A stretch of 64,000 nucleotides of DNA. It comes from Nemertoderma westbladi. Its lineage: Eukaryota; Animalia; Xenacoelomorpha. The DNA lies in NCBI GenBank assembly GCA_032718475.1, contig JAUCBJ010008761.1, forward strand, positions 11,301-75,300, written 5' to 3'. The position numbers and the translations under genes were made by a program. Under the pieces are notes generated by a model. The model searched no databases and was not told the DNA's origin. It saw only the letters and a list, made by a program, of their open reading frames with translations. Positions 14,000 to 64,000 of this stretch are shown here, one piece after another (position 1 is the stretch's first letter; the number at the start of each line of letters is the position of its first letter).

Positions 14000-14542
14000 C
14001 TGCAGAGGAAATAAATACAACATTCTAGATATTAGGGTTAGGGTATCAAGATATTATAGAACACGAAGTGGGGCCTTCGCGCAGCACGTGACTTAAATTT
14101 AATTTAAGTACTAATTCGAAAGTATTACTGTATTAGCAAATTTTAAGCAGATTTCGCCTAATCACTTTTTACCTCTTTCATTTCTATTCAGACATTTCTG
14201 ACTCTAGCGGTATAGTGAGAACTGACGATGGATTAGGGTCTCCAGCCCCACAAAGACACAGCCTATGGATGAATAGTACATACGTACATCGGCCAAGTTT
14301 CATCTTGAATAACGGATAACGAAATGAGAGACGGATCTCACTTTCAGAAATTTCGTCGTATAGCGGCAGACCGATTAAATCTCCCCCCCCCCCCCCCCCC
14401 ACAAAGACGCAGCATGTGGTCCAGAATATATGGCAAGATTCAGCTTAAACTGATTAAAATCAATGAGACGGGAGAATCTATTCACTTTCAGGCATAAAGT
14501 AGTCCTATAGCGGGTGACTGTTGAACTGATTTTCAACAAAAC

Positions 14543-16180: not shown

Positions 16181-16213
16181 ACGACGACGACAACGACGAC
16201 GACGACGACGACA
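16175..16213. repeat. (GAC)n microsatellite
   Basis: Run of ACG/GAC triplets directly after the 315-bp array. Confidence 0.9.
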
Positions 16214-34987: not shown

Positions 34988-35185
34988 ATACTCAGATACT
35001 GTTATAAATATTTTCAAATTATTTAATGTTAAGCAGAATTTCCTATGACCATGTCCTGGAATATAGTTTCTGTATTCAGGTAGGCCTACATGCCTGAGTT
35101 ACTATATTTATCCTTCAACCTTATAGCGATTTGTTGTTACTGTTTGAAAGCTGGGTGTACTGTAAACGTTACGCCAACAGCATAT

Positions 35186-36536: not shown

Positions 36537-37754
36537 TGTTCGCGCTTTCAGACCTTTGGCAGTTTAACCCACCAAATTAAGATGTCTTCTAGATATTAAA
36601 TCGGTTTTTAGTCTATGACAAGTATTTGATTCACTACACTAGTCGAAACCAATCTGTGCGCGATCATTCACCCGCTGGATATTCCCGGGAGATTGGGTTC
36701 GACGGTTTAATTTTATTGCTATGTAAGCCTAATGTATTATTCGACTGACAGTACTATATAATCTCTGACAATATTATTCACCTTCGGTAATATTAACAGT
36801 TCCTTTAGGACTTGGCGCTTTATCTATATAAACAGAGTTATGACTTAAACTACTCACAACGATATGGCTTAATTATAATTCACATATATGGCGCATTCTT
36901 TAGGAATTGCTTCTTTAACAGACTCACTCATACACAATGCTGCACAATACTGCACACTAATCTGCCAATCTTCACTGATTTTAGTCACATATAAAAGGAA
37001 CACAGACTGACTCATGTAGGGTCTATCAAATAACATTAGATTCAGTTCAAACCACTTTAACATAAGTCACAATCGTTTATCTGTAACCCTTCTCTCTTAC
37101 CTTCGGTATATCAAGAATATTGGGTTTCGGGGTTATTTATCGTTATTCCAAATATAATTATTCATCAACCATATTATGAAGAACTGACGGTAAATAGCAG
37201 TGTAAAACAACAATGAAAACACTGATTGTTATGAGTTTGCAATGTTTCAGCAGTCAGCATGTATGATCAGTCAGCAGTTAAAGGATATATGTCCTTGTAA
37301 TTAAACCTACTAGTGTAAGACTAAAAACAGTAAAGCACAAAATACTTCCAAGCCGTTCTTTCTTTGGCTCAGGACTGAATGTAAACACTGCACATAGGCA
37401 TTGCGTCATTTCTCGGAAATTTTCTGTACAAGGAGCCACAAAAACGCTCTAATTGGCTGACTGAACTGAGAGACGCCGTAGAACAAAGGAAATCAACACG
37501 TATGAATGTCAGCTGTTAACCGTAGTCATAGTAACTACTGTTCAAGAGTAGCTATCACCCCTTTGCGTCACGAATTGCCATAGAATCATAAAATATGCCT
37601 TTCACAGTACACATACGGAGGAAATAGGTCTTAGATCCTCTAAAAACACCGATACAGCAATAATACGGTCTCTTACACTTATTAAATCAACTACAGAGTA
37701 TTTTAATGTAAAAGATAATAAAAATAACGGGGCAATTCAGCAAAGGCTTTTACA
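36537..37754 (-). repeat. 3' LTR (1218 bp)
   Basis: TGTTCGCGC...GGCTTTTACA; matches 50938-52196 except ~18 substitutions and a 41-bp deletion. Confidence 0.97.
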
Positions 37755-37762
37755 CCGCTCCC
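37755..37762 (-). promoter_or_regulatory. Polypurine tract (plus-strand primer)
   Basis: Minus strand GGGAGCGG immediately before TGTAAAAG of the 3' LTR. Confidence 0.8.
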
Positions 37763-39922
37763 AGAAAATGGGATTTTCAGTCTATAAAATATAAAAATCA
37801 CAGTTTCTAAAACATAAAGATACTCTAAACAGTTAGTCTTTCTTACGCAGACGGCGTTTACGCAGTTTCTTGAGGCTAGCAAGAGTCCTTTTCTCTTTGG
37901 GGGGAGCCACTTTACTAGGAGGGCTATAAATCCTGGGTGAAGGGTGCAATATGATTGCATCAGAAGGTGTAGGATTATGGTCGGGGTATCCGCCGTTTCG
38001 ATATGCTTCTCCTCGAGCTGATTTTCCTCCGCTCGTAGCTGGATACGTTCATCCAAAAACTCTCGCAGAGAATGGGGTTGTCTAAGTGCGATATCTTCTT
38101 AGAGATTCTGGATTTCCCAATCGAATTGAGATAAGGCCAATTCGTTTATCGATTGGACTTACTGTTATAACTTACATTTATCTGAACAAACGCAGGTTTC
38201 TTTTTTGATCTTTATAGAATAGCGTTTAACTCGTTTCGTACAACGCTCTCCTTCACCTTGATGAGGGGTTGTATCGCGTTAAACGGGGACGACCATACGG
38301 TTGGATAGTGATATTAGGTGTCCGCGTCACAATCCGGCTAGGTAAGATGGGCGGCTAGCTAGAAATCACTGTCGGAGTGTTACCGATTAATTGTTAGGGT
38401 AGCACTAGATCTTTGAACAGTGAATACAGTCCGCGAGGATCCGCGACACCACCAGGATCGCATGTCTGAGGTCCAACTAAGGAATGAGGAGGTTTGACCG
38501 AGTATTCCAGGACTCTGATCGTAGGTTTACTCCAGGATCGTTCGAGCCGAGTGAGCATAGGTGATACGTCAACAATTTTCGGTTTACGTGGATGTTTATG
38601 TCTTTCCGTTTATTAGTTGGGTCTAGGGCATTTATCGTAATAATACCAAAGACGCACGTCTGGTAGGGTAAACGCGGGTGACATTTATTTGTTGTTACAA
38701 TGCTTCTATCAAGAATTCCAAATATACGTTGGAGTTACCGCGTCCATTTGTTTCTTTAGTGTCTTTTCTTTCGAGTCGATTTCGAATAGAATTTTCGCAT
38801 TCGAATTTCAGTTTATGGTTCCGACTCCGCTGGGCAGGATATATAGTCGACATAGTCCGTATTGTGTAAATCGATAGGATGACCAGTAGTTAAGAAGACC
38901 ATATACGTACCATTACGCTGCGTATATCGAGCAGCGAATTTTCTATAGTCCAACTCGCGCGAGCTGCTCTTGGGACATTGGCGGTTCGACATAACGACCA
39001 TCGTCCTCCGCAGCAGTTGGACTAACGTCGCCGCGTATTAAGCTATCAACAAACGCTTGTAAAAGTAGAGTATATCGCTCCCCGATACTAAGACCATCTT
39101 CTATCAACTCCGTCATATCTGCTATATATGAGTTTATCCATATTATAATGAGTTTATATTTAGGCGAGCGGGCGTCGCTGCCTACCCCAATCAACCCCCG
39201 GACAGTACGAGATCCTCAGCGCCGATGTGTCGTCGCCGCTGTACTTTCGCCAACGACGTAGCCGCACAACGACAACGACAACCGGCACAAGTCACTCAAC
39301 TGTCCGTCCCAAAGGCTTAGATGTACTTCAGGTTTCCTTGGAGAGTTAGGTTACTTTTACGATTGCGACTAGCTACTGTAAACACACCTTAGCAGTAACA
39401 TTCACCTATAAACTCACAAATACCACACACACAACTTGTCACAAATTACACACACTCGGGTCACTTGTCCGTTAGTCAATGCCTTCCAGAATGTCACTGT
39501 ATTATTATGTATTCTTGGATACTATCAGTGCACTATTTATTCCCTATGCTATTCAATGGGACAAGCTTTCTATTGTTCTTTTAACTCAATTCTAATTCTA
39601 GCGTGGTTGTTGCTATGGTGACATTATGCAAAGCTAGCGGTAGAATTAGAGTGATTCCAATGCATACAGATCTGGGATGTTATTTAATAGTAATTCTTTA
39701 ATAGTCAATGTTCTGTTTTATACATGACTTTATGAATTTTATCGGCTATTGACTATGTTTGGGAGACTTTCACACACTCATACGCTTGATCTATTAATTA
39801 ATGGAATTTTGGGAACTTTATAAATTGCGTAAAAATGGCAATTTATTAAATTCATTAAAAGGCATGAATTTAAATTGATTCCCTGAAATTTTATTATTTG
39901 ATAATTAAATGGACATATTTGG

Positions 39923-40233
39923 ATTCCAGAACATGTCTGGGGACACAAGATCCTTAATTCTATGACAATTGTCTTTTTAAGAATATCGGTAAATACTACG
40001 ATATCTTAATTGACTAGAATTATTAAAGGATCTGAATTTTACAGATTTTGATTTATTAGATTTTGCAAATATTAATTAATTAATATTTGAGATGGGCACC
40101 GATTTATTCCAGAACTTGTCTGGGGACGTTAACCACTGATTCTAGAATTTGTCTTTCAAGTATATCGGTGGGTGCCGCGATATCTTAATCGACTAGAATT
40201 ACAGATGGTCAAAGGGTTTAACAGATTTATTTT
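39923..40233. repeat. Diverged ~130-bp direct duplication in the BEL 3' non-coding region
   Basis: ATTCCAGAAC.TGTCTGGGGAC...TATCGGT...CGATATCTTAAT.GACTAGAATTA at ~39923 and ~40106. Confidence 0.8.
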
Positions 40234-40746
40234 GCGTTATACGCTACTGTTAAAGGGACATCACGCTACTATATGTATTATTTAATATACGGTATGAGAG
40301 CAATATCGCACGAAGCAATGTCAGTGTGAAGAGGCAAGTCGTTTCCAAGGTCTACCCAGAGCTTGGTTTAGCCGAGACACGAGGATCTGAACTTTGCATT
40401 CCTAATACTCTGCCTACCAATAATACTTAAATATAGTAGTGGCTTTATTGTACTTTAATAAGTACAGACATTTCATCTTACTGTAGTTACGTATTTATAA
40501 TATAATACGGACAGTAAGGAAAGAGAAAAAATAATTATTTCTTCGCCGTCGCACTAAATATAATATAAGTAAGTATGTACGTAATAAACACGAATATATT
40601 GCACTATTCTACAAAATAATCGCTAAATAATATTCTACTAAATTAAATAAAACGATTATAATAAAATTACATAGTAATCCATACATAAATATAAAGATGA
40701 TAAAATAATATAAAATAATAGAGTCACACGCCCACTCCGAACGATA

Positions 40747-43700
40747 TTAAGTTTGGGAGTCCCTAGATGTCGGTTGGATTAGGGAAGTGGTCGTGGGAAG
40801 AGTTTCTTGCCTTCCATAGTTTCCGGAGAGCTCTCTGTCTCTTTCCAGTAAACATAAACGTCCCACTGGGCGATTGAGCTGTTGAGTCTCAAAGACTATC
40901 CCTGGTTTCTTAAAGTTCCGCCGCATGACGACGAGCTCTACTGATCGCACCAAACCATCGCTCGAGATATAAGTCTCGATGATACGTCCTGTTTGCCATC
41001 GCTTACGTGGGAGATCGGGGTCCACAATAAGCACCATGTCTCCAGCGCTGACGTTTTCTTGCTGCGCAAACCACTTAGTTCGAAGTTGTAGAGTGGGCAG
41101 GTAATGTTTCTCGAAATGGTCAGCGAAACGACGGGATAGCAACTGCATAAGTTGCCAGGTTCGACGGCAGTACTCGTCTCCGTCTGTGATCTCCGATTGC
41201 GGGAGCATGGCTACGGGTTTCTTCAGTAGGAAGTGCGCGGGTGTTAGCGCTTCCAGGGAATCAGGATTTGAAGAGACTGGCATAAGCGGTCTTTCGTTGA
41301 GATAGGCGGCGATTTCCTCCATTAACGTCCGCAATAGTTCGTCGGTGAGATAAGCGCGACAAGGCACAATAAAGTGGAACGCAGTCTTCACGCTCCTAAT
41401 CAACCTCTCCCAACTTCCTCCCCACCAAGGGGCGTCGGCGGCGTTGAAGGTCCAGCTAGACGCTGTTATCCTTAGCTGATCGTCCACCTGTCTTTTATTC
41501 CAGTCCTTTACGTAAGCTTGAATTTCGTTGTTGGCGCCAATGAAGTTCGTTCCCTTATCCGATCTCATCGTGTTACTGGTTCCGAAGCGAGCGATCTGTC
41601 GTCGTAAACTCAACACGAAGCTGTTGGTGGATAGATCGTTTACCATATCGAGATGGATAGCTCTACAAGTCATACAAACGAAGATGACACACCATCTCTT
41701 GACTATAGTCCGGGCACGATATACTTCAATAGGGCCAAATAAATCCACACCGGTATTAGTAAAGGGTGGTTCATAGAAGCTTACTCTTTCCCTAGGTAAT
41801 TCTGCCTCTCGCTGCGTTAAAGGCCTACTGAATGCTTTCCTACAGGGTATACAATTCCTAAGAACTTGGTTCAGAGCCCTACGGGGTTTATAAAAATAGT
41901 AGCGAGTTCGAATTTCGCTCAGAACTCGTTCTCTACCAGCATGGTACAGTTTGCTATGAACATCTACAATCATCTTGATTTGTATATCAAGATTTCTAAT
42001 GAGTATGGGAAACTTAGTGTCAAAGGATAATGGGGCGTTTGTTAATCTACCTCCAACACGTATTAACCCATCTATCATGGTACTAGAGAAGCGATCCCTT
42101 AAGCGCATCTGTGGATTTCTTAACAACAGGAAATACTTATCGGAATCCTCATAGCATTGTAGGAGTCTCAGCATCTGTTTGTTGGTTTCATCATGCTCCT
42201 GGTAGCTGATCTTCTCCTTTAGAAACCTGTCGGGTATCTTGTATTTAGGAATATCTTTAATAACATGGACTCGTGCAGATGTTGATGGAGCGTCATCGCT
42301 ATTGGTCTTTGTTCCGGAGTAACGATGATGAAAACATCGTTTCAAATAGGTAACAGCCTTACAGAGCCGATTCCAGGAACTGTAGTGACGTATCGCTCTC
42401 TGCAAGAGAGGTGAGAGTCCTTGCGAGATATCTGGTATTCCAGATTTCCAATCCTTGTCACGGATTTCCATGACTTCTTTCGTCGTGGCGGTGGGTTTCT
42501 GATCCAAAGCATCATCTCCGGAAGTAAATAATACAGATAGATCAACCGCAGGTTTAAACAACTTCGATTTACTCGCTCGAGTTTTGGGTTTAACTTTCTC
42601 CGCTCCCTTGGCCTGTCTGATCTCTGCTGTTGTGAGATGGGGTGGCCATTCTTCTTCTTCTCGGTAGAGAAAGTCGGGTCCACCTAACCATTCGGGAGTA
42701 TTTACCAATTCCTTTGGAGTCGCTTCTCGGGACGCGATGTCCGCTGGATTAATCGTTCCGGGGCAATGTCTCCATTGGTCCATCGTCGTGCGACTAAGTA
42801 TGATGGCTACCCTGTTGGTAACGAAGACGCTGAACTGACAGACTTCATTGGTTATATACTCTAACACGAGTAAAGCGTCGGTCCAATAGACAGTTTTCTC
42901 TAACGTATAGTCAATCTGTTCGGTTACATTCCGGCCGATGGCTGTAGCGTATAGAGCCGCTTTTAACTCCGCTCGAGGAACTTTCAACTTGTTGTTGATT
43001 AATGCCTTAGAAGTAACCAAGGCGACTTTGATTCCATCCGGAGTTTCCACTCTTAGGTAGGCTACTATACCGATTCCCATATCGCTGGCGTCTCCAAACA
43101 CATGGAGTTGATAGGAATACGTAGGGAGAACATGACCAAAATATGAACGGGAAATTATAAACTCCTCGATAGCCGGTAGAGAATCTTCCCATTTCATCCA
43201 CTGCTTCAGTAATTCACCCTTAAGTGGATCGTCCCATGAGTGGTTTTCAAGCCACATTTGTTGTACCAAACTTCGAGCAATCAATATAACTGGGCTAATA
43301 AATCCCAATGGATCGAAATAAGTGCTCAGTATACTTAAGCAAATCCGTTTGGTTCGAACAGGATTATCTCGCTGTTTTAGTTGGAAAAACAGGATATCTC
43401 TCTCTGTGTCCCATTTCAAGCCGAGTGTCTTGGTTTCTGGCAGATCATCTTTGATCAAATCAAGATCTTTCGCTCCGCGATCTTCCGCAGGAATCGACTC
43501 CAGAAACTCACGGGAGTTGCTGGTGAATTTGGTTAATCGAAATCCACCTCTTTTTAAGCACTCTACCGTTCCCTTAGCGACCTCAATGGCTTCCTCAACT
43601 GATGGAAGGGACTTCAGATTGTCGTCCATGTATATGTCTCTCTTGATGTTGTCGATCACTTCCTTAGAGAAGGCCTCTCTATTGTCCTCTGCAGTAGTAC

Positions 43701-46700
43701 GCACTACCGAACAGGCGTTGGAAGGGCTTGAGATTATCCCAAAGGCCTGGATGGTCATCCAGTACTCCACCGGTTTCTGGTTGAGGTCTCCTTCGGGCCA
43801 CCACAGAAATCGTAGACTATCTCGATCCCTATCTAACACCTTGACTTGTAAGAACATGCCTTCTATATCGGAGGCGAAAGCAATCGAATATTGTCTCAAT
43901 CTTAAAAGAATTCCCAACAAAGATTGAAGCAAGTTGGGTCCGGGTAACAATTCAGAGTTAAGGGATTGACCCATGTAAAGAACGGAGCCGTCAAACACTA
44001 CTCTCACTTCGTGTGGTTTACCGGGTTTAGGAACGTAATGGTGAGTTAAATAATACGTTCTTTCAGTCACAGGTGTTTCTTCCGGTACTCTCTCCGCGTA
44101 TCCCTTATTAATAAATTTTTCTAGCTGTGTTTGATACATGGCTTTCGCTGAAGAATTAGCCGTAAGGCGTCGATGGAGTTGCGCGATTCTTTTTTCCGCC
44201 AAAGGTCTGTTATTGATGAACTTCGGTTCTTTCTTGCGGAAAGGTAAACCGACTTCATACCTACCTTGATCTTTGAGGAAACATGTAGTTGTCTCTTGGA
44301 TCTGCTTGGCCCTTTCCTCTTCCACCGACAAGGCTTTATCGTAGGAATTGGGCTCTACCGCCTCTTGCGTAAAGAATCGTACAGCATGTTCATCCCGAAT
44401 CTTGGCATTATGACGCTCAATGACGTCATTTAACTCGTCGTTATAAGCTTCTCGTTCCGATGGATAGAGAAGTTGACATAAGTTCACTTGGTTTTGCCAA
44501 GCCTCGTTTTCCTTAAGGAGATCGATGGTATTCTCCTCATCAAAAAGCTGGTGAACATCGTCGTTATCTGAGGAGTATGGAATTCCCTCAGTTGAGTTGT
44601 CTCCCTCACTGGTATCATCTTCCCATTCACTCACCTGGCATACGCTCTCTTGCGGTAGTCTTTCTCTGAGTGTTCTACGGGAAGGGCCAGTAAAGTACCA
44701 ACCTACTCTAGTTCTTACCGCATAGGTCTGTAGTGGCTGCGGTTGAGCAGGCCGTTTCTCTAATGTCTCCAGCGCCTCATGCGCGTTTTGGCCGATGAGT
44801 ATTTGCACTCCAGGATAATCAGTCTGGAATCGAGGTATGTTAAGATGTTGGATGCTCTCATCCTCGTCCCAATTATAAAGGTCTGCTTGAGTAGTAGCGA
44901 AGTTCTTTATAGCCACCATTTTCACTGACCTTATGCTGTGTTCTCCTAGTTCGTCTTGTGGGGTGGACAACGCGCCTACATAATAATCAGCTGTTATTGT
45001 AGATTTCCAAACTTGCATTATGCCAGACATGTTGAGCTTAGTTTGGAACTTGAGTTGTCCAGCAAATATATCTTCGGCTAGCTCTTTGTCGATGAATGTT
45101 CCTGTACTACCGGAGTCGAGGAGGGCGTTCACTACATAACTCCTCTTAGGTCCGTGAACCCTCACCTGCACCACAGGAAACTCTCGGATCCCTACATTTG
45201 AAGATGGCTCTTTCCAAGATGGTTGTCGCTCAGAAGTAGTTAGAGTAAAGTCGTTGTCTGGATCCTTTTCATATGTGAGTGCTCGATACACTGCGGTATT
45301 TATCATGTAACAGGATTCGTTTTCGTCGGAGAACTCATCTGTATAGAATCCTTCCATCTCAGATTGATCAGTGTCGTTCACATCACTGAATTGGACATGT
45401 AACTCGGAATCACTTACCTGATTCGGACTATTTCGATCGAATTCAGCGTGCAACAAGATATGATGTTTCGCACCACACTTTGCACATCTTATGTCCGAGA
45501 AACAGGTACGCCGTTGGTGTCCTTGTCTGAGGCAATTATAACATAACCGCTTATCCCACATAACTTCGCGTCTCTCCGTTAATGATTTCTTTAGAAATTC
45601 ATCACACCTATTCAAATAGTGGGTCCCGTCACACAGCGCACATTTTGGTTTGATGTTACTTACCTTATTCTGAGTCACGTTGTGTACACTTGCCCTTTCT
45701 TCGGGTTTTCTCACCTGAATTCTCTTGGGAGACGTGGGAGGAGTTTTTCTTACCTGTTCCCTCCTGTCATTTGTTCGAGACTTAAATTTACTTACCTGAT
45801 CTTTAGGCATTTTATTCACGTAATAAGATCTATCCGTGTCCTTCCCGCTATCTTCTCCTTGAGAAGTCTGGCTTTCGCCGTCATCGGTATAACATACTGG
45901 TGTTATTTTTCTCCTAGAGACGGGTTTTTCACTTACCTTGTTTTCCGGTGTTTTCTCCCTAGACTGTTTCAGGAGCTGTAATTTCACTTCTCCATCTAGG
46001 AATGACATGAGATCAGCCATGGTAGGGTCTCGCCGTTGTTGTTCCATCATATATAACACTTTCTTATCCCAGCGTGTACCTACTCCACCTTTAGGTAAAG
46101 TAGAAGCCACTGCTCTAATAACCATAGTGTTCTGATACTCATGAGACTTACCTAGCCAATCTAATTGTCTGCAGATCTCCTGGATCTCATCGGAAAACTC
46201 GATAATTCCGCTACTAATAAACTTTCGGGGCGCTACTAACTTTGCATACAAGTACCCAGCGATATTATTCCTATTACCATACCTGATGTTTAGTGTATCC
46301 CAAACTTGTCTTAATCCGTCTGGATGTCCAATAAACTTTAACGCCATTAACTTGGGAGATCCTTCCAAGCACTCGATGAGGTATCTAAGTTTTTCTCCAT
46401 TAGATAGTACAGAGTTCTGTATGTTATCTTTGTAATATTCATTAAAAGGTAACCATTTCATCTCATCTCCATTGAACTTGACGATCTCTCCAACCTTTAC
46501 CGCTTGCCGGGCTTCGGTTCTAGCCATTTGACGCGTAAAACTTTCTTGGGCCATCGTGCTATTTAATATCGAGTTATCGGTATATAAATTTCTCGGATTA
46601 TGATCCGGTCTATAGGGAATATCACTATCAACAGGTCTATAATTACCCTTAATAGGGTTCACTATAGGAGTTTCTACTTCGCTAGCAGTATAGATGCGTG

Positions 46701-48777
46701 TAGGCTCCACACCTTGCCCATGAGATACTTCAGGTTTTTGGGTATTTACTAATTTATCGCGTTCAAGCGCGATACTTTGCTGCACTTCTTGCAACTCTAG
46801 CCTACTTTCCCTTACTGTGCCCTTGAATTGCAGGACAGTCTCCTGCATCTGCCCGAGCAGGATATCCATCCCCCGCCGTCTCTCGTCTACCCAATCAACC
46901 GCCGAAACGGGATCCGCCAACGTCGTAGCGGGCGGACGAGGGACAACGGGCGACAAATTTGGAATATTTCGCTCGGGGTCCAGGACCTGAACTGTCTCTT
47001 GGGCAGTTCTACGGGGCACAGGTAGCTTAGTGCTATGCAGAGGGAATTTAGAAGTAGTTTCAGGGAGCACAGGTGTATCTATCACTGAAGGGGTGATTTC
47101 AAGAACAGGCCTAATTATTTCAGGCTCATCTACTATAGTAGGGAGTCTTTCTATTTTAATTATTTGGTCTGTGGGTTCTGTACTACCTAAGTTGGTGTTA
47201 TTTAGTTGCCTTCTAACAGCTGGAGGCAAATCAGGCAATTTCTGACGGTGGAATGTTCTTTTACGTCTGCTTAGACGAGATCGATTTCCTCCGCCGTCAG
47301 TGTCGGTGGTATCGCCTTCCTCAGATGATGTATAACCTTGTCGTTTGGGAGTAGATCGATTCATCATCTGCATATTACTAGCTGTTAACTGTTTATTAAA
47401 GTTATCTTGCCTCTCTTGAAGATTTTCCAACTCTAGTTGGGTTGTCTCTTCAGATGCCCTCCGTTCTGCTTCTGCCACTGCTATCTTTCTTTCCGCTTCT
47501 GCCGCTGCCGCTTTCCTTTCCGCAGCTGCCGCCTTTGCCTCTGCCGCTGCCTCTGCTGCCTTTCGTTCCGCTTCTGCCGCTGCCACTGCCGCTGCTGCTG
47601 TCTTTCTATCTTCTATACGTTTTTTCTTTACTTGTTCTTCTTGAACCTTGGCGATGCGGAGTTGTTCATCGAATTTAGCTTGGTTCGCCGCTAACCTATC
47701 CACATCAATTGCATCTAACACAAGTTTGGCTCCTTCGCTGTTAGGGCTAAGTCCCTCCAGCCTTCTCCTCAACTCGTCATCTCCTAAAAAACGCTGATAG
47801 TCTGACAGATAGATGTCAATGGCATCCTTCTTATGCGGTTTCTCTGCCGTCGCTTCACTTTCCACTTGGGAAAAAGTAGCGTCTGTTGATTCTCCATGGG
47901 TTGAGCGCTCCTCCAACTGAGCTTTCCACTGAGCTGCTCCTTGAACCTGGCGACTCACCCGTTGAAACCAAGTCTTTACGGCAACTTGCAACGACGTGTC
48001 TTGTTTTCTTTTAGAAGCCTCCTCAAAGGCGGATAAGATTAGCCTAATCCGCAGAACTCTTTCTCTAACTTGATAAAGCAGCTGTCCCTGCTCTTGAGGT
48101 CCTTGAGGTTGTTGAAACAGTTGTCTCTCTACTCGCTCCATAGAGCTGAAGAATCCCTGGGCGTATCCGGCTGCGGACCTCTTCCACACAGCTGGATCGA
48201 TGGTTTCCTTGGCTACTCCCATCCGGTGTATGTCTTCCCAGGCAGCTTCTGATAAATCAAACGGGAGTCCGGGTCCGGGGAAGTTCCATTGCGACTCGAC
48301 AATAGACTTCAGTTCTTCACTAGTGTATCCCGCGTAGCTATCTCTAGTTGACCGTTGACTTCTCGCCCAATCGATCTGGTGTTCTTCCACCGCGATCAAT
48401 AACCCAGCGAGCACGGCTGCAGGAAGGATGAGAAGGGGATCCGTATAAACCGCATCCGTCATCTCTGCTCCGCTCTCGGGTGTCAGCTCTACAGTATCCT
48501 CACTACTGGAGCTGCTGGGCCGCTGAGGAATAAGTTCTTGACTAGTGGGTTGTTGCTGTTCCGCTGCCTTTTGGTCCCGCTTGACCTGAGCTCGAGTGCC
48601 TATGATAGACCTACGATGTTGGACCAGCCTAGGTTCTGTTATTACTACTGGAGGGATGACCTTCCTCACAGTGGGAGGTGAACTGGATTTACGACCAGAC
48701 GGTTGTACGTCTCTATCTGAGTCGCAGATAGTTACATCTAATAAACTGTCTGACAGGTTCTGCTTAGTATCAGACAT
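40747..48777 (-). CDS. BEL/Pao Gag-Pol polyprotein, 2676 aa, intact
   Basis: Gag DUF1759-like (KFNGDEMKW..F...EKLRYL); three knuckles (CALCDGTHYLNRC, CYNCLRQGHQRRTC, CAKCGAKHHILLH); protease ALLDSGS; RT (RVVFDGS, DIEGMFLQV, YMDD); Pao RNase H (LHVFGDAS, PRAEL, YWTD, NPADIASR); integrase HHCC plus DLFGP/SDKGTNF/PWWGGSWERL; DUF5641-like tail. Confidence 0.98.
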   Translation of the reverse strand: MSDTKQNLSDSLLDVTICDSDRDVQPSGRKSSSPPTVRKVIPPVVITEPRLVQHRRSIIGTRAQVKRDQKAAEQQQPTSQELIPQRPSSSSSEDTVELTPESGAEMTDAVYTDPLLILPAAVLAGLLIAVEEHQIDWARSQRSTRDSYAGYTSEELKSIVESQWNFPGPGLPFDLSEAAWEDIHRMGVAKETIDPAVWKRSAAGYAQGFFSSMERVERQLFQQPQGPQEQGQLLYQVRERVLRIRLILSAFEEASKRKQDTSLQVAVKTWFQRVSRQVQGAAQWKAQLEERSTHGESTDATFSQVESEATAEKPHKKDAIDIYLSDYQRFLGDDELRRRLEGLSPNSEGAKLVLDAIDVDRLAANQAKFDEQLRIAKVQEEQVKKKRIEDRKTAAAAVAAAEAERKAAEAAAEAKAAAAERKAAAAEAERKIAVAEAERRASEETTQLELENLQERQDNFNKQLTASNMQMMNRSTPKRQGYTSSEEGDTTDTDGGGNRSRLSRRKRTFHRQKLPDLPPAVRRQLNNTNLGSTEPTDQIIKIERLPTIVDEPEIIRPVLEITPSVIDTPVLPETTSKFPLHSTKLPVPRRTAQETVQVLDPERNIPNLSPVVPRPPATTLADPVSAVDWVDERRRGMDILLGQMQETVLQFKGTVRESRLELQEVQQSIALERDKLVNTQKPEVSHGQGVEPTRIYTASEVETPIVNPIKGNYRPVDSDIPYRPDHNPRNLYTDNSILNSTMAQESFTRQMARTEARQAVKVGEIVKFNGDEMKWLPFNEYYKDNIQNSVLSNGEKLRYLIECLEGSPKLMALKFIGHPDGLRQVWDTLNIRYGNRNNIAGYLYAKLVAPRKFISSGIIEFSDEIQEICRQLDWLGKSHEYQNTMVIRAVASTLPKGGVGTRWDKKVLYMMEQQRRDPTMADLMSFLDGEVKLQLLKQSREKTPENKVSEKPVSRRKITPVCYTDDGESQTSQGEDSGKDTDRSYYVNKMPKDQVSKFKSRTNDRREQVRKTPPTSPKRIQVRKPEERASVHNVTQNKVSNIKPKCALCDGTHYLNRCDEFLKKSLTERREVMWDKRLCYNCLRQGHQRRTCFSDIRCAKCGAKHHILLHAEFDRNSPNQVSDSELHVQFSDVNDTDQSEMEGFYTDEFSDENESCYMINTAVYRALTYEKDPDNDFTLTTSERQPSWKEPSSNVGIREFPVVQVRVHGPKRSYVVNALLDSGSTGTFIDKELAEDIFAGQLKFQTKLNMSGIMQVWKSTITADYYVGALSTPQDELGEHSIRSVKMVAIKNFATTQADLYNWDEDESIQHLNIPRFQTDYPGVQILIGQNAHEALETLEKRPAQPQPLQTYAVRTRVGWYFTGPSRRTLRERLPQESVCQVSEWEDDTSEGDNSTEGIPYSSDNDDVHQLFDEENTIDLLKENEAWQNQVNLCQLLYPSEREAYNDELNDVIERHNAKIRDEHAVRFFTQEAVEPNSYDKALSVEEERAKQIQETTTCFLKDQGRYEVGLPFRKKEPKFINNRPLAEKRIAQLHRRLTANSSAKAMYQTQLEKFINKGYAERVPEETPVTERTYYLTHHYVPKPGKPHEVRVVFDGSVLYMGQSLNSELLPGPNLLQSLLGILLRLRQYSIAFASDIEGMFLQVKVLDRDRDSLRFLWWPEGDLNQKPVEYWMTIQAFGIISSPSNACSVVRTTAEDNREAFSKEVIDNIKRDIYMDDNLKSLPSVEEAIEVAKGTVECLKRGGFRLTKFTSNSREFLESIPAEDRGAKDLDLIKDDLPETKTLGLKWDTERDILFFQLKQRDNPVRTKRICLSILSTYFDPLGFISPVILIARSLVQQMWLENHSWDDPLKGELLKQWMKWEDSLPAIEEFIISRSYFGHVLPTYSYQLHVFGDASDMGIGIVAYLRVETPDGIKVALVTSKALINNKLKVPRAELKAALYATAIGRNVTEQIDYTLEKTVYWTDALLVLEYITNEVCQFSVFVTNRVAIILSRTTMDQWRHCPGTINPADIASREATPKELVNTPEWLGGPDFLYREEEEWPPHLTTAEIRQAKGAEKVKPKTRASKSKLFKPAVDLSVLFTSGDDALDQKPTATTKEVMEIRDKDWKSGIPDISQGLSPLLQRAIRHYSSWNRLCKAVTYLKRCFHHRYSGTKTNSDDAPSTSARVHVIKDIPKYKIPDRFLKEKISYQEHDETNKQMLRLLQCYEDSDKYFLLLRNPQMRLRDRFSSTMIDGLIRVGGRLTNAPLSFDTKFPILIRNLDIQIKMIVDVHSKLYHAGRERVLSEIRTRYYFYKPRRALNQVLRNCIPCRKAFSRPLTQREAELPRERVSFYEPPFTNTGVDLFGPIEVYRARTIVKRWCVIFVCMTCRAIHLDMVNDLSTNSFVLSLRRQIARFGTSNTMRSDKGTNFIGANNEIQAYVKDWNKRQVDDQLRITASSWTFNAADAPWWGGSWERLIRSVKTAFHFIVPCRAYLTDELLRTLMEEIAAYLNERPLMPVSSNPDSLEALTPAHFLLKKPVAMLPQSEITDGDEYCRRTWQLMQLLSRRFADHFEKHYLPTLQLRTKWFAQQENVSAGDMVLIVDPDLPRKRWQTGRIIETYISSDGLVRSVELVVMRRNFKKPGIVFETQQLNRPVGRLCLLERDRELSGNYGRQETLPTTTSLIQPTSRDSQT

Positions 48778-48915
48778 GACTAGGTATGTACAGTTGAATG
48801 CCTACTGCTATATTACAGTCTAAGCAAGTCTAGTAACTCAGTATGAACTGCTAGCCTAGTAATTAATTACCGTTACTGCTACTCAGTGTAGCGTGATATA
48901 TATATAATATATTAG

Positions 48916-49165
48916 AATACCGGTATACTTATAGTATATATAACTATATAAGTATTATTACAGACTAGGTTTATCACAGAATACCGGTATAATTTTAGCA
49001 CAAATATATATAAATATATAATAGGCCTATCGGAATACCGGTATACAGCTTACAGTTTGTAGGATATATAATTCTGAAATAGAATTAATTACAAGTACCG
49101 GTATAATTTCAGCCTAGATTTATAGAAATAAAGATAATAGGCCTATCGTAAATACCGGTATATCA
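48916..49165. repeat. Five degenerate ~55-65-bp units centred on TACCGGTATA in the BEL 5' leader
   Basis: TACCGGTATA at ~48918, 48983, 49035, 49096 and 49153. Confidence 0.75.
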
Positions 49166-50149
49166 ATTATTTCAAATAATTGAATTTCTGTTACTTTAGG
49201 GTTACTTTGTTACTTTACTTACTTTATTACCGTTATTTGAGCAGTAATCCAACTGATATTGGGACCTAATGGTTGTATGGTAGGCCTACTATTTATAAAT
49301 CGTTAGATTTGATTTATAATATATATATACCCGTTTTAATGGGTTTTGTCAATGTTTGAAATAAATGTTATTATTTCTGGGGGTAATCACTACACAAAGC
49401 GGTGCGCTTTCAATGAAGTGTTACCTATGAGACACTAAAACAAATAATACTAATTTACCTAAGTTACTTAATACTACAAATTACGTACAATTCGGGTGAG
49501 ATTACAATCTCTAAATAAACACAAAAATTTACAAAAACACAAATACGAATTTTTAGGGTAATTTTACAAGAAGTCTACAAACCAGCCTAACAAAGGGTTA
49601 GAATTCTGGTTATTACACGGACAGGGTACTACGGTATTTGAAATAATAAGTAGTAGTAAATACACTGCGTTGTCTAGATAGGAAAATACCACCGCCTGAC
49701 GACCTATAGCCGTATCGCTATAGGTTCTACGTTATGTATCACGGAGTGTTCCTACCTAGAAGTTAATAGAGCTAATCGAATGTGCCTATCAACCACTTTA
49801 CAACACAGATATAATGTCTACAATAATTATTTCGGAAAGCACTGTACACTAAACCCTAAATTAGGTACGAGTACTTGTACAACAAATAATCAGTAGTTAA
49901 ATATACTTGAACAGCTAAAAGAACCACGGCATCTGCTGGAGTGACCGATGCACAAAATCACCAGTCTTTACCTACGCCGAGCAGCCCGTGTAGTACCGGG
50001 GTTAATTTAACTATAGCGGTATGTATAACAAACACAATTACTGTAGGAACAAACTTGGGGACTTGAATGTTGCGAATAATCGCATAAACTCTGAATAATA
50101 AATATTACGCTACGCGTACAAACTACTCAAACAAAATACAGACCGAACA

Positions 50150-50665
50150 CTGACAGACTACTATCAAGCCTAAACAAACTACGGTATATGCAGACTCCGA
50201 AATGATTAGGGAGTATGCGCTCTAACCCAGTAGTGCGACTTATTCTTTAGTTGGGGGTTTACCTTACAGCGTTCGCTGCCCCTACTGCCTAATCGTACTT
50301 AATCGGACAGATGATCTACACACGCAGCAATCCGTTCAGACTTAATAACAGCCAGACAACTATCCAGCCTACAAATTATTTAAATAAAATTATACGCTAC
50401 CCGTACAGACTTACACAAACAAAGTACAGACTAAACGATGGCAGACTACTCTCAAGCCTAAATAAACCACAGGACATGCAGACTCCGAAATGATTAGGGA
50501 GTATGCGCTCTAACCCAGTAGTGCGACTTATTCTTTAGTTGGGGGTTTACCTTACCGCATTGGCTGCCCCTACTTCCTAACCGTACTTAATCGGACAAGT
50601 GCTCTACACACACTGTAATCCGTTCAGACCTAACAGCAATCAGACAACAGCTCAGCCTACAAATT
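50150..50665. repeat. ~290-bp-period direct duplication in the BEL 5' leader
   Basis: ATGCAGACTCCGAAATGATTAGGGAGTATGCGCTCTAACCCAGTAGTGCGACTTATTCTTTAGTTGGGGGTTTACCTTAC is identical at ~50187 and ~50476. Confidence 0.9.
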
Positions 50666-50925
50666 GTCTGTACAATCTGATGAGGTTTACACGCCTTCTG
50701 TTCAATACTGGCCTACAAACAAATAAAACTTGACAGAAATAAGTAAAAATCTCAATAAAAAACCAGGGCTGCAGTCCCTGATAAATTATTAAGGCCTACT
50801 GGTATATAACAATCAAAATCGAATAATACTGCTGTAGGTACCGGTCCGGATGATCAGGCAGTCAGGCCTACTGGTTACCGGTCGACCGGTACTTTCAACT
50901 TTATTGCTTACTGCAATAAAGAAGC

Positions 50926-50937
50926 TATATCCTTTAA
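50926..50937 (-). promoter_or_regulatory. PBS position: TTAAAGGATATA (no TGG), complementary to LTR 51720-51731
   Basis: Directly abuts the 5' LTR end and is an exact inverted repeat of a 12-mer in both LTRs. Confidence 0.75.
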
Positions 50938-52196
50938 TGTTCGCGCTTTCAGACCTTTGGCAGTTTAACCCACCAAATTAAGATGTCTTCTAGATATTAA
51001 ATCAGTTTTTAGTCTATGACAAGTATTTGATTCACTACACTAGTCGAAACCAATCCGTGCGCGACCATTCACCCGTTGGAGATTCCCGGGAGATTGGGTT
51101 CGACGGTTTAATTTTATTGCTATGTAAGCCTAATGTATTATTCGACTGACAGTATTATATAATCTCTGACAATATTATTCACCTTCGGGAATATTAACAG
51201 TTCCTTTAGGACGTGGCGCTTTATCTATATAAACAGAGTTATGACTTAAACTACTCACAACGATATGGCTTAATTATAATTCACATATATGGCGCATTCT
51301 TTAGGAATTGCTTCTTTAACAGACTCACTCATACACAATGCTGCACAATACTGCACACTAATCTGACAATCTTCACTGATTTTAGTCACATATAAAAGGA
51401 ACACAGACTGAATCATGTAGGGTCTATCAAATAACATTAGATTCACTTCAAACCACTTTAACATAAGTCACAATCGTTTATCTGTAACCCTTCTCTCTTA
51501 CCTTCGGTATATCAAGAACATTGGGTTTCGGGGTTATTTATCGTTATTCCAAATATAATAATTCATCAACCATGTTATGAAGAACTGACGGTAAATAGCA
51601 GTATAAAACAACAATGAAAACACTGATTGTTATGAGTTTGCAATGTTTCAGCAGTCAGCATGTATAATCAGTCAGCAGTATGCAGACATCAGTCATCAGT
51701 GATTCCATGAGTCAGGTAGTTAAAGGATATATGTTCTTGTAATTAAACCTACTAGTGTAAGACTAAAAACAGTAAAGCACAAAATACTTCCAAGCCGTTC
51801 TTTCTTTGGCTCAGGACTGAATGTAAACACTGCACATAGGCATTGCGTCATTTCTCGGAAATTTTCTGTACAAGGAGCCACAAAAACGCTCTAATTGGCT
51901 GACTGAACTGAGAGACGCCGTAGAACAAAGGAAATCAACACGTATGAATGTCAGCTGTTAACCGTAGTCATAGTAACTACTGTTCAAGAGTAGCTATCAC
52001 CCCTTTGCGTCACGAATTGCCATAGAATCATAAAATATGCCTTTCACAGTACACATACGGAGGAAATAGGTCTTAGATCCTCTAAAAACACCGATACAGC
52101 AATAATACGGTCTCTTACACTTATTAAATCAACTAAAGAGTATTTTAATGTAAAAGATAATAAAAATAACGGGGCAATTCAGCAAAGGCTTTTACA
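50938..52196 (-). repeat. 5' LTR (1259 bp)
   Basis: TGTTCGCGC...GGCTTTTACA; contains the 41-bp segment (51680-51720) absent from the 3' LTR. Confidence 0.97.
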
Positions 52197-52650
52197 GCGG
52201 AAGTAGAACTGTTGATAAACTCGAGACCCCTTTGTCCTATGAACGATAATCTCAACTCAGGTGATGTGTTAACTCCAAACCATTTGCTATTTAGATGCCG
52301 TCTGCTGGGATATCCTTCTGAGATGTTCAGCGATAAAGCGTACCTAATTTCAAAGAAACAATTGGAAATATGTCAATATTTAACCGGAGTTTTTTTGGGA
52401 GAAATGGAGTGCCACATACAAGCAAACTCTTATTAACCAACAAAAATGGTTACGGCTGGTCAAGAACTTTAACATAGGGGACATTGTACTACTAGTAGAT
52501 CCAGATACTAAACACGGCCAATGGAGAATGGGTCGAATTAAAGACGTTGTTACCAGCGAAGATGGCTTAGTTCGTACAGTACATATTTGGTCAAGATTTT
52601 CAAACTTATGTCGACCGATAAATAAAATCTGCCGGTTAGAACTGGATTTT
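52197..52650 (+). pseudogene. Integrase C-terminus/DUF5641-like region of an older, different BEL/Pao element
   Basis: AEVELLINSRPLCP...VLTPNHLL, then after a frameshift QKW...GDIVLLVD....GQWRMGRI..V..SEDGLVRTV...RPINKICRLE. It starts exactly at the LTR edge. Confidence 0.9.
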
Positions 52651-57859: not shown

Positions 57860-58662
57860 GAATTAATGGCCTCCATCGAACGAGAATTCTTGCAATCTTT
57901 GAACGCCTATATTTAAACTGTTTGTTTCGAAATCAGACGAAAATCAGACATCGAACATTGTTTGTTATCGCAACGCAAGCTTTCTAATGATATAATCGCG
58001 ACCAATAATGTGATGACATTTTACATTATTTAATTTCATTATCACATTATACAGCAAGTCATTGTTTTTTGAGCCATGAAGTCTTAGCATACAATTTATT
58101 ACCGGCCAAGTACTGTAATAATAAGAAACAATACATAAGCCTAAGATATATGTAATATGCTAACAATTGGATTTTATCATTAAAAAAGATATCTGATAAA
58201 AAACTTTATACTTCATTGTTCATAAAATTAAAAATTCATAAAAATAGCGTTACGGTATGAGTGATTTTGATAATAAAACGAGGGCCTTAAAAGCTTTAAA
58301 GAGCTAATTATGAACAATGGCGAATCTAATTTTATTTATTTGTGGGGAATTATTTGTAACTATGCACTTGAACTTTCTAGAACAACCTTGTAACAGGAAA
58401 GCATCACATGCTAATTAGATAAACTTTCATCTCGTACCAAAATTAACGTAGTGGATAACGCGTCGGGTTATGAATATAAAGGCCGTTGGTTTGATTCTGT
58501 CCTATTTCAATTTTGGGGCAGTGCGAAATTAATTCCAGACAAATAAATAAAAGAGGTTGTTGACTCCGCTTCCAACTCGAGATAATGATATATAAGATAC
58601 AGTACGAGTTGCACAATAAAAAATACGCGATTCTAAATTTCTCACCCTACCCGGTTAATTGC

Positions 58663-60736
58663 GGTAGGTGCTAAAATGCACAACGAGCAACAATGAGCAA
58701 CAACGAGCAACAACGAGAAACAACGAGCAACAACGCGCAACAATGAGAAACAACGAGCAATAATAAAGTACAACTACGAGTAACAATGAGCAACAACAAG
58801 CAACAATGAGCAACAACGAGCAACAATGAGCAACAACGAACAACAATGAGCAACAACGAGCATTAATAAAGAACAACAACAAGCAACAATAAGCAACAAC
58901 GAGCAATAATGAGTAACAATGAGCAACAACGAGCAACAATGAGCAACAACGAGCAACAATGATCAACAATGAGCAACGACGAGAAACAATGAGCAACGAC
59001 GAGAAACAATGAGCAACAACGAGCAACAATAATGTACAGCAACGAGTAACAACAAGCAACAATTAGCAACAATGAGCAATAATGAGTAACAATGAGCAAC
59101 AATAAGCAACAACGAGCAACAATGAGCAACGACGAGAAACAATGAGCAACAACGAGCAACAATAATGTACAACAACGAGTAACAATGAGCAACAACGAGC
59201 AACAACAATGAGCAACAACGAGCAACAATGAGCAACAACGAGCAATAATAAAGTACAACAACGAGCAACAATGAGCAACAATGAGCAACAACGAGCAACA
59301 CCGAGCGACAATGAGCAACAACGAGCAATAATAAAGTACAACAACGAGCAAAATGAGCAACAACGAACAACAATGAGTAACAACGAGCAACAATGAGCAA
59401 CAACGAACAACAATGAGCAACAATGAGCAACAACGAGCAATAATGAGCAACAATGAGCAACAACGAGCAACAATGAGCAACAACGAGCAACAATGAGCAA
59501 CAACGAGCAACAATGAACAACAACGAGCAACAATGATACTTATGCAGTATAAGGTATCCCAGTAACCCCGAATATATATGTATGATATAAATAAATTCCC
59601 AATCAAGAACTTAATAAAAAATGCTTCCAAACCCGCAATGTCATCAAGATGGTGCACAATACTGCTATACCGGGACCGGTAGGCCTACAAATATTTATCA
59701 GTTTACCTGATTTCAGTCTATCAGTCTTGTTCCGTTCCGTTCGGCTTGTGTCGTTGAAACTTACCGGTACTAACAATACCTAATGCCTGAATGCTGGAGA
59801 TAATTTATGAATTGCCGTACAATGCGGTTTCAGGGGCCTCCCGCTCCTCAACCTATTATCTGGTTCTGACTGTCTGATGTGTACGGTTACGGTACTGTGA
59901 ACGTGAAGTGAAGTGTGAACTGGTTTTCGTATTGTTATTTTGTATGCAGTTGGACAGTGACCTGATTGCTGTGGGATGGGGTAGGCCAAGCCTATTTTTT
60001 ATTTGATTTGTTATTTAGGTTACTGGGTTAAGATTAGTCAGTTACTTGCTCAGGAGTTTTACAGGGAAGTGGCTACTGACCGGACCGGACCATCTAAATA
60101 CCGTATTGAAGCTTTATATTTGATTTATATTTTAGTTGTGTATTATTGAGCCGACCCTTGTTACCTCAGCTTTTTTGACCGGACCCATAATCTTGTAATA
60201 TGTCGTAACTTTCGTTTATTGTTTTGGTTACCACCAAAATTTATTGCTATTTTGGTTGCTCATTGTTACACGTTGTTGTACTTATGTACTTTATCATTGC
60301 TCGTTGTTGCTCATTGTTGCTCCTTGTTTTACTTTATTATTGCTCGTTGTTCTTCATTATTGCTCATTGTTGCTCCTTGTTGTACTTTATTATTGCCCAT
60401 TGTTGCTCACAGTTGCTCATTGTTGCTCGTTGTTGCTCGTTGTAGCTCATTGTAGCTCATTATTGCTTATTGTTACTCGTTGTTGTACTTTATTATTGCT
60501 CATTGTTCCTTGTTGGTGCTCATTGTTGTGCTTTATTATTGCTCTTTGTTGCTCATTGTTGCTCGTTGTTGCTCGTTGTTGGTCATTGTTGCTCGTTGTT
60601 GCTCATTGTTGCTTGTTGTTGCTCATTGTTGATCATTATTACTCGTTGTTGGTCATTGTTGCTCGTTGTTGGTCATTGTTGCTCGTTGTTGCTCATTGTT
60701 GGTCATTGTTGCTCGTTGTGCATTTTAGCACCCACC
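58663..60736. mobile_element. Foldback-type (MULE-related) element with modular 10-bp-repeat arms
   Basis: Termini GGTAGGTGCTAAAATGCACAACGAGC / GCTCGTTGTGCATTTTAGCACCCACC with an exact 9-bp TSD GTTAATTGC (58654-58662 and 60737-60745). The left arm is (AACAAYGAGC)n at ~58680-59535; the right arm is its reverse complement at ~60250-60720. Confidence 0.9.
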
Positions 60737-61062
60737 GTTAATTGCATGTGATGGGATTACAGTGTTCTACAATTTCGGCAATAAAACAGATTGGAGTAGT
60801 GTTGGTTCGGCTGTTAGTATTAAGTGTGGGCGGAAAGGAGCTCAGGAAAGGTTTTCAGAATTTGTCTTTATGCATACTGTAGTACAGTAAGTGGTATTAA
60901 AGAAATTGAAAACGCCAAAGTTTACGGTCGTTAAATACTCTATATTATTCCGGAATTATCTTATATTCTTCGTCAATCAAAAATGTTAAAACTTATGTCA
61001 ATCGATGATAATAAAACTAATTTACTTAATTAAATGCAGTTCGTTAGATGGCAGCTTTTTTG

Positions 61063-63520: not shown

Positions 63521-63569
63521 ATTTTGACCCTTGCCATTGGCACTTCGGGCCAATGGCAAGGGTCAAAAT
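63521..63569. repeat. Perfect 21-bp-stem hairpin, probably the end of a HINE-like element
   Basis: ATTTTGACCCTTGCCATTGGC-ACTTCGG-GCCAATGGCAAGGGTCAAAAT. Confidence 0.9.
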
Positions 63570-63589
63570 ATTTGCGGCATCATTTGCAT

Positions 63590-64000
63590 CATGGGTTACG
63601 TTGAGAGATTCCACTATGCGGAAACCAGAATGGGTTCCATTGAGAGACTGCTACGCGTAAACGAGAATGGGTTCCGTTGAGAGACTGCTACGCGGAAACG
63701 AGAATGGGTTCCGTTGAGAGACTGCTACGCGGAAACGAGAATGGGTTCCGTTGAGAGACTGCTACGCGTAAACGAGAATGGGTTCCGTTGAGAGACTGCT
63801 ACGCGGAAACGAGAATGGGTTCCGTTGAGAGACTGCTACGCGTAAACGAGAATGGGTTCCGTTGAGAGACTGCTACGCGGAAACCAGAATGGGTTCCGTT
63901 GAGAGACTGCTACGCGTAAACGAGAATGGGTTCCGTTGAGAGACTGCTACGCGTAAACGAGAATGGGTTCGTTGAGAGACTGCTACGCGGAAACCAGAAC
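63590..64000. repeat. 37-bp minisatellite, ~11 copies, running off the window end
   Basis: Unit GAGAATGGGTTCCGTTGAGAGACTGCTACGCG(G/T)AAAC, period 37 (63663, 63700, ...). Confidence 0.96.

Follow-up and report, generated by a model that had tools for sequence, protein, structure and literature searches.

A BEL/Pao-type retrotransposon of Nemertoderma westbladi whose primer-binding site complements its own LTR: a candidate for self-primed reverse transcription

The retrotransposon described here, a BEL/Pao-type element in the 64,000 nucleotides of Nemertoderma westbladi DNA that we analysed (the window), carries at its primer-binding site (PBS) a sequence complementary to its own long terminal repeats (LTRs). 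Judging from the sequence and by analogy with Tf1, we favour, at a probability of roughly 0.6, a model in which minus-strand synthesis would be primed by the 5' part of the element's own RNA, cut after a 12-mer. If the 3' LTR is also admitted as a source of the primer, self-priming through one LTR copy or the other appears quite probable. Self-priming is likely because the site has no TGG, because its complement lies in the element's own LTR, because relatives are built alike with other letters, and because two of these (L071 and L072) differ by compensatory changes.

Results

Architecture of the element

The element is an LTR retrotransposon of 15,660 bp (15.7 kb) on the minus strand, 52196-36537. 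Its 5' LTR is followed by a 2.1-kb leader, the ORF, a 3-kb 3' region, a purine tract and the 3' LTR.

50938..52196, minus strand: 5' LTR, 1259 nt, TG...CA, its end reading ...GCGAACA (LTR comparison)
36537..37754, minus strand: 3' LTR, 1218 nt (LTR comparison)
37755..37762, minus strand: purine-rich tract GGGAGCGG preceding the 3' LTR (sequence)
40747..48801, minus strand: single gag-pol ORF, 2684 aa from stop to stop, first ATG at 48777 (ORF list, Pfam and motifs)

Three zinc knuckles, a protease, a reverse transcriptase (RT, with YMDD), an RNase H and an integrase are encoded in the ORF, with protease, RT, RNase H and integrase motifs in that order at 1229, 1724, 1904 and 2414. The protein matches PF03564, PF05380, PF17921 and PF18701, and Pfam gave no chromodomain match in it. 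About 770 aa, including an alanine-rich coiled-coil-like stretch, lie ahead of the Gag domain (46500-48777, minus strand); homologs among the 120 of 422 matches listed are at most 2224 aa long, versus 2684 aa here. The 3' region (37755-40746) holds no ORF of 150 aa, env-like or other, and its two short ORFs have no Pfam match. Within the leader we noted a tandem duplication (50124-50665; 288-nt spacing, 87% alike), a 16-bp palindrome 35 nt after the PBS that is a candidate dimer site (50876-50891, minus strand); inspection by eye added about five further TACCGGTA palindromes towards the leader end (48920-49165, minus strand). Tandem arrays occupy 6766-8000, 14541-16187, 35108-36530, 58577-60740 and 63531-64000 of the window, with periods of 20/40, 315, 14, 10 and 37; the 10-nt array is present in both orientations, about 1 kb apart.

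The two LTRs differ by 18 mismatches in 1218 aligned positions and one 41-nt gap, and are 98.5% alike in the aligned columns. The mismatches are unevenly spread, with 2 in the first 477 nt and 16 beyond, and the gap falls immediately after position 477. The initial annotation called the element intact, a description that suits the ORF and the LTRs but not the flanks, which lack an exact target-site duplication (TCCGC on the left, CCTGC on the right). Adjoining the 5' LTR, the left flank is a plus-strand remnant of a second BEL/Pao element, its integrase C-terminal end (52212-52647); a tandem repeat makes up the right flank. Because there is no target duplication and the flanks are foreign, the copy is probably rearranged or recombined at one end. 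The remaining part of the second BEL/Pao element is absent from the far side of the studied one.

A primer-binding position that pairs with the LTR

Three sites define the putative priming system.

50926..50937 (read 50937 to 50926), minus strand: primer-binding position TTAAAGGATATA, no TGG, abutting the LTR end (sequence)
51720..51731 (51731 to 51720), minus strand: predicted self-primer site TATATCCTTTAA, LTR positions 466-477 (role putative)
37278..37289 (37289 to 37278), minus strand: 3'-LTR copy of the 12-mer TATATCCTTTAA (sequence)

The absence of a TGG after the 5' LTR and the exact 12-nt complement in both LTRs, about 465 nt in and in the polarity of a primer, had been reported in the initial annotation, and both observations are confirmed. 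All 12 bases match at offset 0; the match is exactly 12 nt long, G-U pairs give no extension, and the LTR base that follows the 12-mer is unpaired. Outside its two LTR sites, TATATCCTTTAA is absent from both strands of the window. From the 3' end of the 12-mer it is 782 nt to the 5' LTR's end and 741 nt to that of the 3' LTR.

The 12-mer is 83% A+T. A match of this length was rare in controls. Dinucleotide-shuffled LTRs gave a 12-nt match at offset 0 in 2 of 20,000 trials and at offsets 0-4 in 11 of 20,000. Among internal positions, the site itself excluded, 1 of 13,153 matched the LTR over 12 nt, and on a looser score that admits spliced or contiguous matches 1 of 1000 shuffles did as well as the element. 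A splice-built primer was rejected for this element, as no junction equals or beats the contiguous match.

Relatives keep the pairing with different letters

Homologs of the RT-RNase H region, among the 120 of 422 matches listed, are 38-43% identical to it and carry PF05380; the named hosts among those listed are a sea anemone, corals, a mussel, echinoderms, a hemichordate, a tunicate and a fish. For the comparison of priming sites we used 69 metagenome (JGI) loci, from the best 80 of at least 563 confirmed, together with 16 loci from contigs in prokaryote bins. A direct repeat surrounds the ORF in 31 of the 69 and 11 of the 16, most being cut by contig ends. Two scans of viral contigs gave no relatives of the element, and none of the 69 JGI loci has an LTR that looks like that of the window. 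Several of the BEL/Pao elements, some with both LTRs, come from contigs filed as bacterial MAGs (L071:1-8746, L072:1-9196, L078, L073, L075 and L084), and are likely to be host-animal contamination. One contig (L045:1-18507) consists of three head-to-tail units with a period of 6138 that share one LTR each, as in a one-LTR circle or an assembly loop.

Twenty-three elements were tested, the others being omitted because the LTR was too incomplete or the family already represented; this sample contains no tRNA-primed BEL/Pao element. The score was the longest Watson-Crick complement that the element's LTR offers to the bases lying 0-4 nt behind it; the complement could be uninterrupted or span a GT-AG intron, provided the intron had at least 50 nt. 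The LTR end was placed in 14 elements through the divergence of the two copies (in L065 through the ACA at the contig end; L030 was re-placed by eye), and in the nine without a fixed end every candidate end was scanned.

TGG follows the LTR in none of the 14 relatives with a placed end, and 12 of the 14, one weakly, have a complement of 9-12 nt in their own LTR. Eight placed-end JGI families match over 9-12 nt, a result equalled by 0-3 of 1000 shuffles in seven of them and by 25 of 1000 in L048; L049, a sister copy of L048, reaches 11 nt when a relaxed rule is applied, with GTACGT as the donor, and L030 reaches 11 nt (4/1000). Five complete elements were added later: L071, L072 and L075 score 11 nt (2-6/1000), and L073 (8 nt, 63/1000) and L084 (5 nt) are negative. 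When nine PBSs were crossed with nine LTRs, every PBS found its best partner in the LTR of the same element; of the 72 foreign pairs, one reached 10 nt and none 11 nt. Seven of the nine end-scanned elements also have an own-LTR complement. Six of eight families were positive in the blind scan (L003, L005, L021, L042, L043 and L067, at 10-15 nt, with 0-1 of 60 shuffled scans as good) and L029 and L053 were negative; L078 has 11 nt, at 19/1000 for that single end, uncorrected for the scan. In controls for the blind scan the placed end ranked first in three of four, the one missed being L020, whose end reads ATA.

Among the 19 positives, 15 are junction-type, matching only across a GT-AG intron in the LTR, and four are contiguous (L020, L058, L062 and L067). 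They are not all independent, as L071 and L072 form one group and L043 and L075 have the PBS in common. The match is 9-12 nt long in 18 of them and 15 nt in L067, and in every case it stops at a distance of 0-4 nt from the LTR end. The one negative control, a Ty1/copia element inserted in L075 and with a PBS that we take to be of the half-tRNA type, matches its own LTR for only 4 nt. The LTR of about 1640 nt in L078:1563-3204 includes a predicted intron of 1022 nt, and the PBS matches the junction that its removal would create; such an intron seems to be what makes LTRs long among the relatives.

Covariation between PBS and LTR in related BEL families had been proposed as a check on self-priming; in the relatives the pairing is kept with other letters. 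The clearest case in the set is the pair L071 and L072, whose LTRs can be aligned and share the donor and identical flanks: CAC in one and TAA in the other precede the donor, and the PBS reads GTG and TTA, respectively. These are two compensatory changes. A similar swap between L058 and L062 was withdrawn after alignment left their sites out of register. Own-LTR pairing had been taken as special to the window element; it looks instead like the rule in the sampled marine BEL/Pao radiation, mostly in a splice-junction form.

How the window element departs from its relatives

The window element sits on a long branch (end branch of 1.69 in a quick tree), with at most 47% RT-RNase H identity and about 40% RT identity to distant relatives. 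The relatives therefore speak for the mechanism in the clade and not for the family of the window element. Its primer site is 782 nt from the LTR end, versus 44-233 nt in the relatives, and 601 nt from the AATAAA, versus 0-87 nt in 8 of 10. Its site is contiguous, whereas 15 of the 19 positives are junction-type, and its PBS starts with TT, whereas in 18 of 19 positives GT stands at the first or second paired base.

Sequence motifs give divided hints as to where the RNA might begin. In L046 a TATATAA stands 31 nt ahead of the first base that pairs, and this suggests an RNA start at the primer. An initiator-like hexamer lies 27 nt upstream in L020, 28 nt in L062 and 33 nt in the window element, and one occurs within 60 nt in 4 of 11; this pattern, noticed post hoc, points to a 5' piece of some 40-45 nt paired only at its 3' end.

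Transcription signals and predicted RNA folding

The following motifs and structures bear on the form of the RNA.

51761..51766, minus strand: initiator-like TTAGTC, A at 51764, candidate RNA start, one of 8 such hexamers in the LTR
51113..51118, minus strand: AATAAA, the only one in the LTR, predicted poly(A) signal, 601 nt after the 12-mer
51497..51503, minus strand: splice-donor-like AG/GTAAG inside the LTR, downstream of the 12-mer (candidate, sequence motif)
50899..50921, minus strand: perfect 9-bp hairpin following the PBS; none of 13 relatives exceeds 6 bp at this place
50803..51161, minus strand: predicted LTR:leader stem (folding), 51161-51113 with 50803-50920, weak, which would bracket the PBS and bury the AATAAA

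The TTAGTC motif, which we take to be initiator-like, had been placed about 20-25 nt upstream of the 12-mer; measured from its A, the distance is 33 nt. The donor-like motif at 51503, together with an AG just before the ORF (about 48800, minus strand), could yield a spliced mRNA without the PBS, and such splicing could separate translated from packaged RNA. No splice joint from this donor was found in the contigs of public run X1 among the matches listed.

The hairpin after the PBS, reported in the initial annotation, is real (50921-50899) but unremarkable, since five places in the 13.2-kb internal region form a perfect 9-bp hairpin. As it is not conserved in the relatives, it was rejected as a component of the mechanism.

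When the RNA was folded from 51731 and ended anywhere from 50920 to 50840, the predicted helix between PBS and 12-mer had a probability of 0.96-0.99; from the 51764 start, with shorter ends, it ranged over 0.28-0.99. Once the RNA from 51731 passes 50815 the probability drops to about 0, because a crossing LTR:leader stem of 42 pairs wins and the program, which cannot model pseudoknots, allows only one of the two. The stem, which would be the counterpart of the supporting U5-type stem beside the primer duplex in the Tf1/sushi group, is itself borderline: the region was picked after the fact, equally good pairing came up in 8 of 200 shuffles and in 6 of 100 control windows, and none of eight relatives has a comparable stem.

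Discussion

A model for self-priming

The proposal of the initial annotation that the element primes itself gains from relatives that keep the pairing with different letters and without TGG; the folding speaks both ways, as the predicted helix depends on the RNA end chosen, and the hairpin is not conserved. We envisage the following sequence of events. Transcription would start either at 51732/51731 or, 33 nt upstream, at the initiator-like motif, so that the 12-mer would lie close to the RNA's 5' end. The 12-mer would then fold back over 782 nt onto the PBS, probably with the assistance of Gag, and a single cut after it, made by the element's RNase H if the process is Tf1-like, would free a 3'-OH from which RT would copy U5 and R. 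Finally, plus-strand copying of the attached primer would rewrite the PBS from the LTR site and keep the two in register. According to the accessible text of PMC11042837, about half of Tf1 cDNA carries a full copy of the PBS at its 3' end, which suggests how PBS and LTR site could stay matched.

Most relatives would have to splice out an intron of the LTR to put the primer together, and the contiguous site of the window element is likely derived from such a form and without the intron. Where an intron lies upstream of the end of the primer, a new copy would receive it from the 3' LTR portion of the RNA, and each splicing of that portion would remove it; such losses would account for the contiguous forms found at several points of the tree. 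Since the donor-like motif at 51503 could not be spliced in the packaged RNA without being lost, the long loop of the window element probably stands.

Alternative explanations

The alternative that survives best keeps self-priming and moves the primer to the other end of the RNA. The promoter would be the TATA-like motif near 51231, the 12-mer would belong to U3, and the primer would be cut from the 3'-LTR copy (37289-37278), on the same RNA or on a dimer partner. Two TATA-like hexamers lie in the LTR, both downstream of the 12-mer: the one at 51231 precedes the AATAAA by about 110 nt, the one at 51161 by about 40 nt. They point to a possible RNA start downstream of the 12-mer; no TATA-like motif occurs within 60 nt upstream of it. 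With the AATAAA the two hexamers stand in the usual order late in the LTR, which would make for an ordinary layout, and an R region of about 620 nt would no longer be needed. Against this, the primer end of 8 in 10 relatives precedes the poly(A) signal by 0-87 nt, where R should begin, the TATATAA of L046 stands 31 nt before the first paired base, and the match stays within 9-12 nt in all of the 19 positives but L067, as though a nearby RNA end limited it. Nor is there an AATAAA just upstream of the 12-mer, so cleavage at a poly(A) site would not make the primer end, and a primer produced in that way was rejected. We consider this arrangement unlikely.

The pairing might instead be structural, serving end-to-end cyclisation as with CYC5/CYC3 of Ty1 or masking of the PBS, with a host RNA such as a tRNA fragment as the true primer. 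Ty1 has cyclisation elements and intramolecular PBS-CYC5 pairing (PMC9503155), and half-tRNA primers without TGG exist in Ty1/copia (PMC6317226), as the accessible parts of these papers report. However, a fixed host primer would keep the PBS constant, whereas the PBSs of the 19 positives are diverse and each tracks its own LTR. The compensation between L071 and L072 argues the same way, as does the position of the match, whose end always lies 0-4 nt from that of the LTR, the place at which DNA synthesis has to begin. We hold a purely structural role to be rather improbable. A tRNA-like primer carried by the element itself is without support: the window contains no tRNA gene, and the single Rfam match in the element, at E 0.45, is not credible.

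It is improbable, to a slightly greater degree, that the lineage self-primes while the window copy is rearranged or faulty and its geometry is not that of the active family. The missing target duplication, flanks made of another BEL/Pao integrase end and a tandem repeat, the uneven LTR mismatches (2 in the first 477 nt, 16 after) and a PBS start that departs from the GT of the relatives would all fit such a copy. Public contigs of run X1, a run of uncertain kind, add a further point. They include diverged copies of the element; none of those among the matches listed covers 51632-51733, and one departs from the window sequence at 51740 and rejoins it at 51614 with unseen letters between. Because this contig joins 51740 to 51614, a copy that differs at the 12-mer site may exist, and the variant counts against the self-priming reading for now. 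Contig depth in X1 steps down near 51630-51740, and contigs cannot reveal an RNA start; runs X2 and X3 gave a low-complexity piece only. A faulty copy is, however, hard to reconcile with an ORF open over 2684 codons, LTRs that are 98.5% alike and a 12-mer kept in both.

Chance pairing in an AT-rich LTR, which the 83% A+T of the 12-mer and a test chosen after the match was seen might favour, is already made very unlikely by the shuffles (2/20,000, 11/20,000 with offsets, 1/1000 on the looser score), the cross test, the recurrence in relatives and the L071/L072 pair.

Comparison with known systems

Self-priming by the 5' part of the element's own RNA, the reading we prefer, has its model in Tf1, where the mRNA's first 11 bases anneal to the PBS and the RNase H cut falls between bases 11 and 12 (PMC7175516). 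The accessible portions of the literature describe self-priming in Tf1/sushi and Tj1, and for Tcn1 and the TAR lineage of copia they give it as a prediction (PMC6317226, PMC4600332, PMC7175516, PMC6934838). As in Tf1/Tf2 of S. pombe, Tj1 of S. japonicus, the Tf1/sushi Ty3/gypsy elements and plant Tcn1, the PBS of the window element complements its own LTR and not a tRNA; in that group the primer is a piece of RNA cut from the transcript, as it would be here, and the duplex of 11 nt in Tf1 compares with 12 nt (PMC7175516, PMC4600332, PMC6317226). The differences are considerable. The window protein has BEL/Pao domains and not those of a chromovirus-type Ty3/gypsy element, so that it is not a member of Tf1/sushi; its loop spans 782 nt, and its 12-mer may start 33 nt inside the RNA, whereas the Tf1 site is at base 1. 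Most relatives of the window element would need splicing to make the primer, which the accessible texts of PMC7175516, PMC4600332 and PMC6317226 do not describe. Self-priming has been shown experimentally in Tf1, whereas here it is deduced from sequence, and an origin separate from that of Tf1 is plausible.

The TAR lineage of plant Ty1/copia elements (Houba, Osr-1) was predicted to self-prime from a complement of at least 10 nt located 0-5 nt after the LTR, and the window element has such a complement. TAR belongs to another superfamily and its hosts to another kingdom; it shows that self-priming was proposed earlier outside Ty3/gypsy (PMC6317226, accessible text). Fungal GalEa Copia elements, with their Conserved Hairpin Site, resemble the window element in lacking a tRNA PBS and in having a 9-bp hairpin near the LTR end, but in the available account they have no LTR complement to the site, whereas the hairpin of the window element follows a PBS and is not conserved (PMC5445492).

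The ICTV profile of Belpaoviridae (Semotivirus) describes replication as primed by host tRNA and poorly understood (PMC8742986). The window element shares with it Gag and Pol in a single gag-pol ORF (the profile allows one or two), the PR-RT-RH-IN order, two LTRs, a polypurine tract and Pao-specific Pfam domains, its 5' LTR of 1259 nt lying just above the 0.2-1.2 kb of the profile. It differs in its size, 15.7 kb versus 4.2-10 kb, and in lacking the 18-nt PBS for the 3' end of host tRNA-Arg or tRNA-Gly (PMC8742986). The element is thus BEL/Pao-type by its protein and not by matching the ICTV profile.

We found no paper on self-priming in BEL/Pao among the listings and abstracts that were searched; an earlier mention in Repbase, GyDB, a supplement or a subscription paper may exist. 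BEL/Pao surveys and an LTR-element phylogeny never discuss the priming site in their main text: 'primer' is used only for PCR and sequencing in PMC554778, where 'PBS' and 'tRNA' are absent; all three words are absent from PMC3118150 and PMC6238403; and PMC2774666 has no 'primer', 'PBS' or 'self-prim'. Nothing on BEL/Pao priming was found in the accessible parts of PMC8220671 and PMC3286476. As far as the sequences indicate, a mechanism known from elsewhere would here act over an unusually long range, in a family for which it has not been reported.

Implications

A broader scenario can be drawn, although we regard it as speculative and rather doubtful as a whole. A wide marine BEL/Pao radiation may have dropped tRNA priming entirely and come to splice an LTR intron to build its primer, the host spliceosome thereby licensing reverse transcription. 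Intron-less forms would have arisen several times, and the window element would be the extreme, with a contiguous primer acting across 782 nt and, only at the 5' LTR, a stem that would mask the poly(A) signal and expose the PBS.

If self-priming is confirmed here, it would run through a third LTR superfamily and be common in animals, and would bear on whether self-priming or tRNA priming came first, a question raised in the accessible text of PMC3601003. Elements of this kind would stand outside control by 3' tRNA fragments, as may be deduced from the available part of PMC7472051, and programs that need a tRNA site to recognise an LTR element would overlook or misjudge them.
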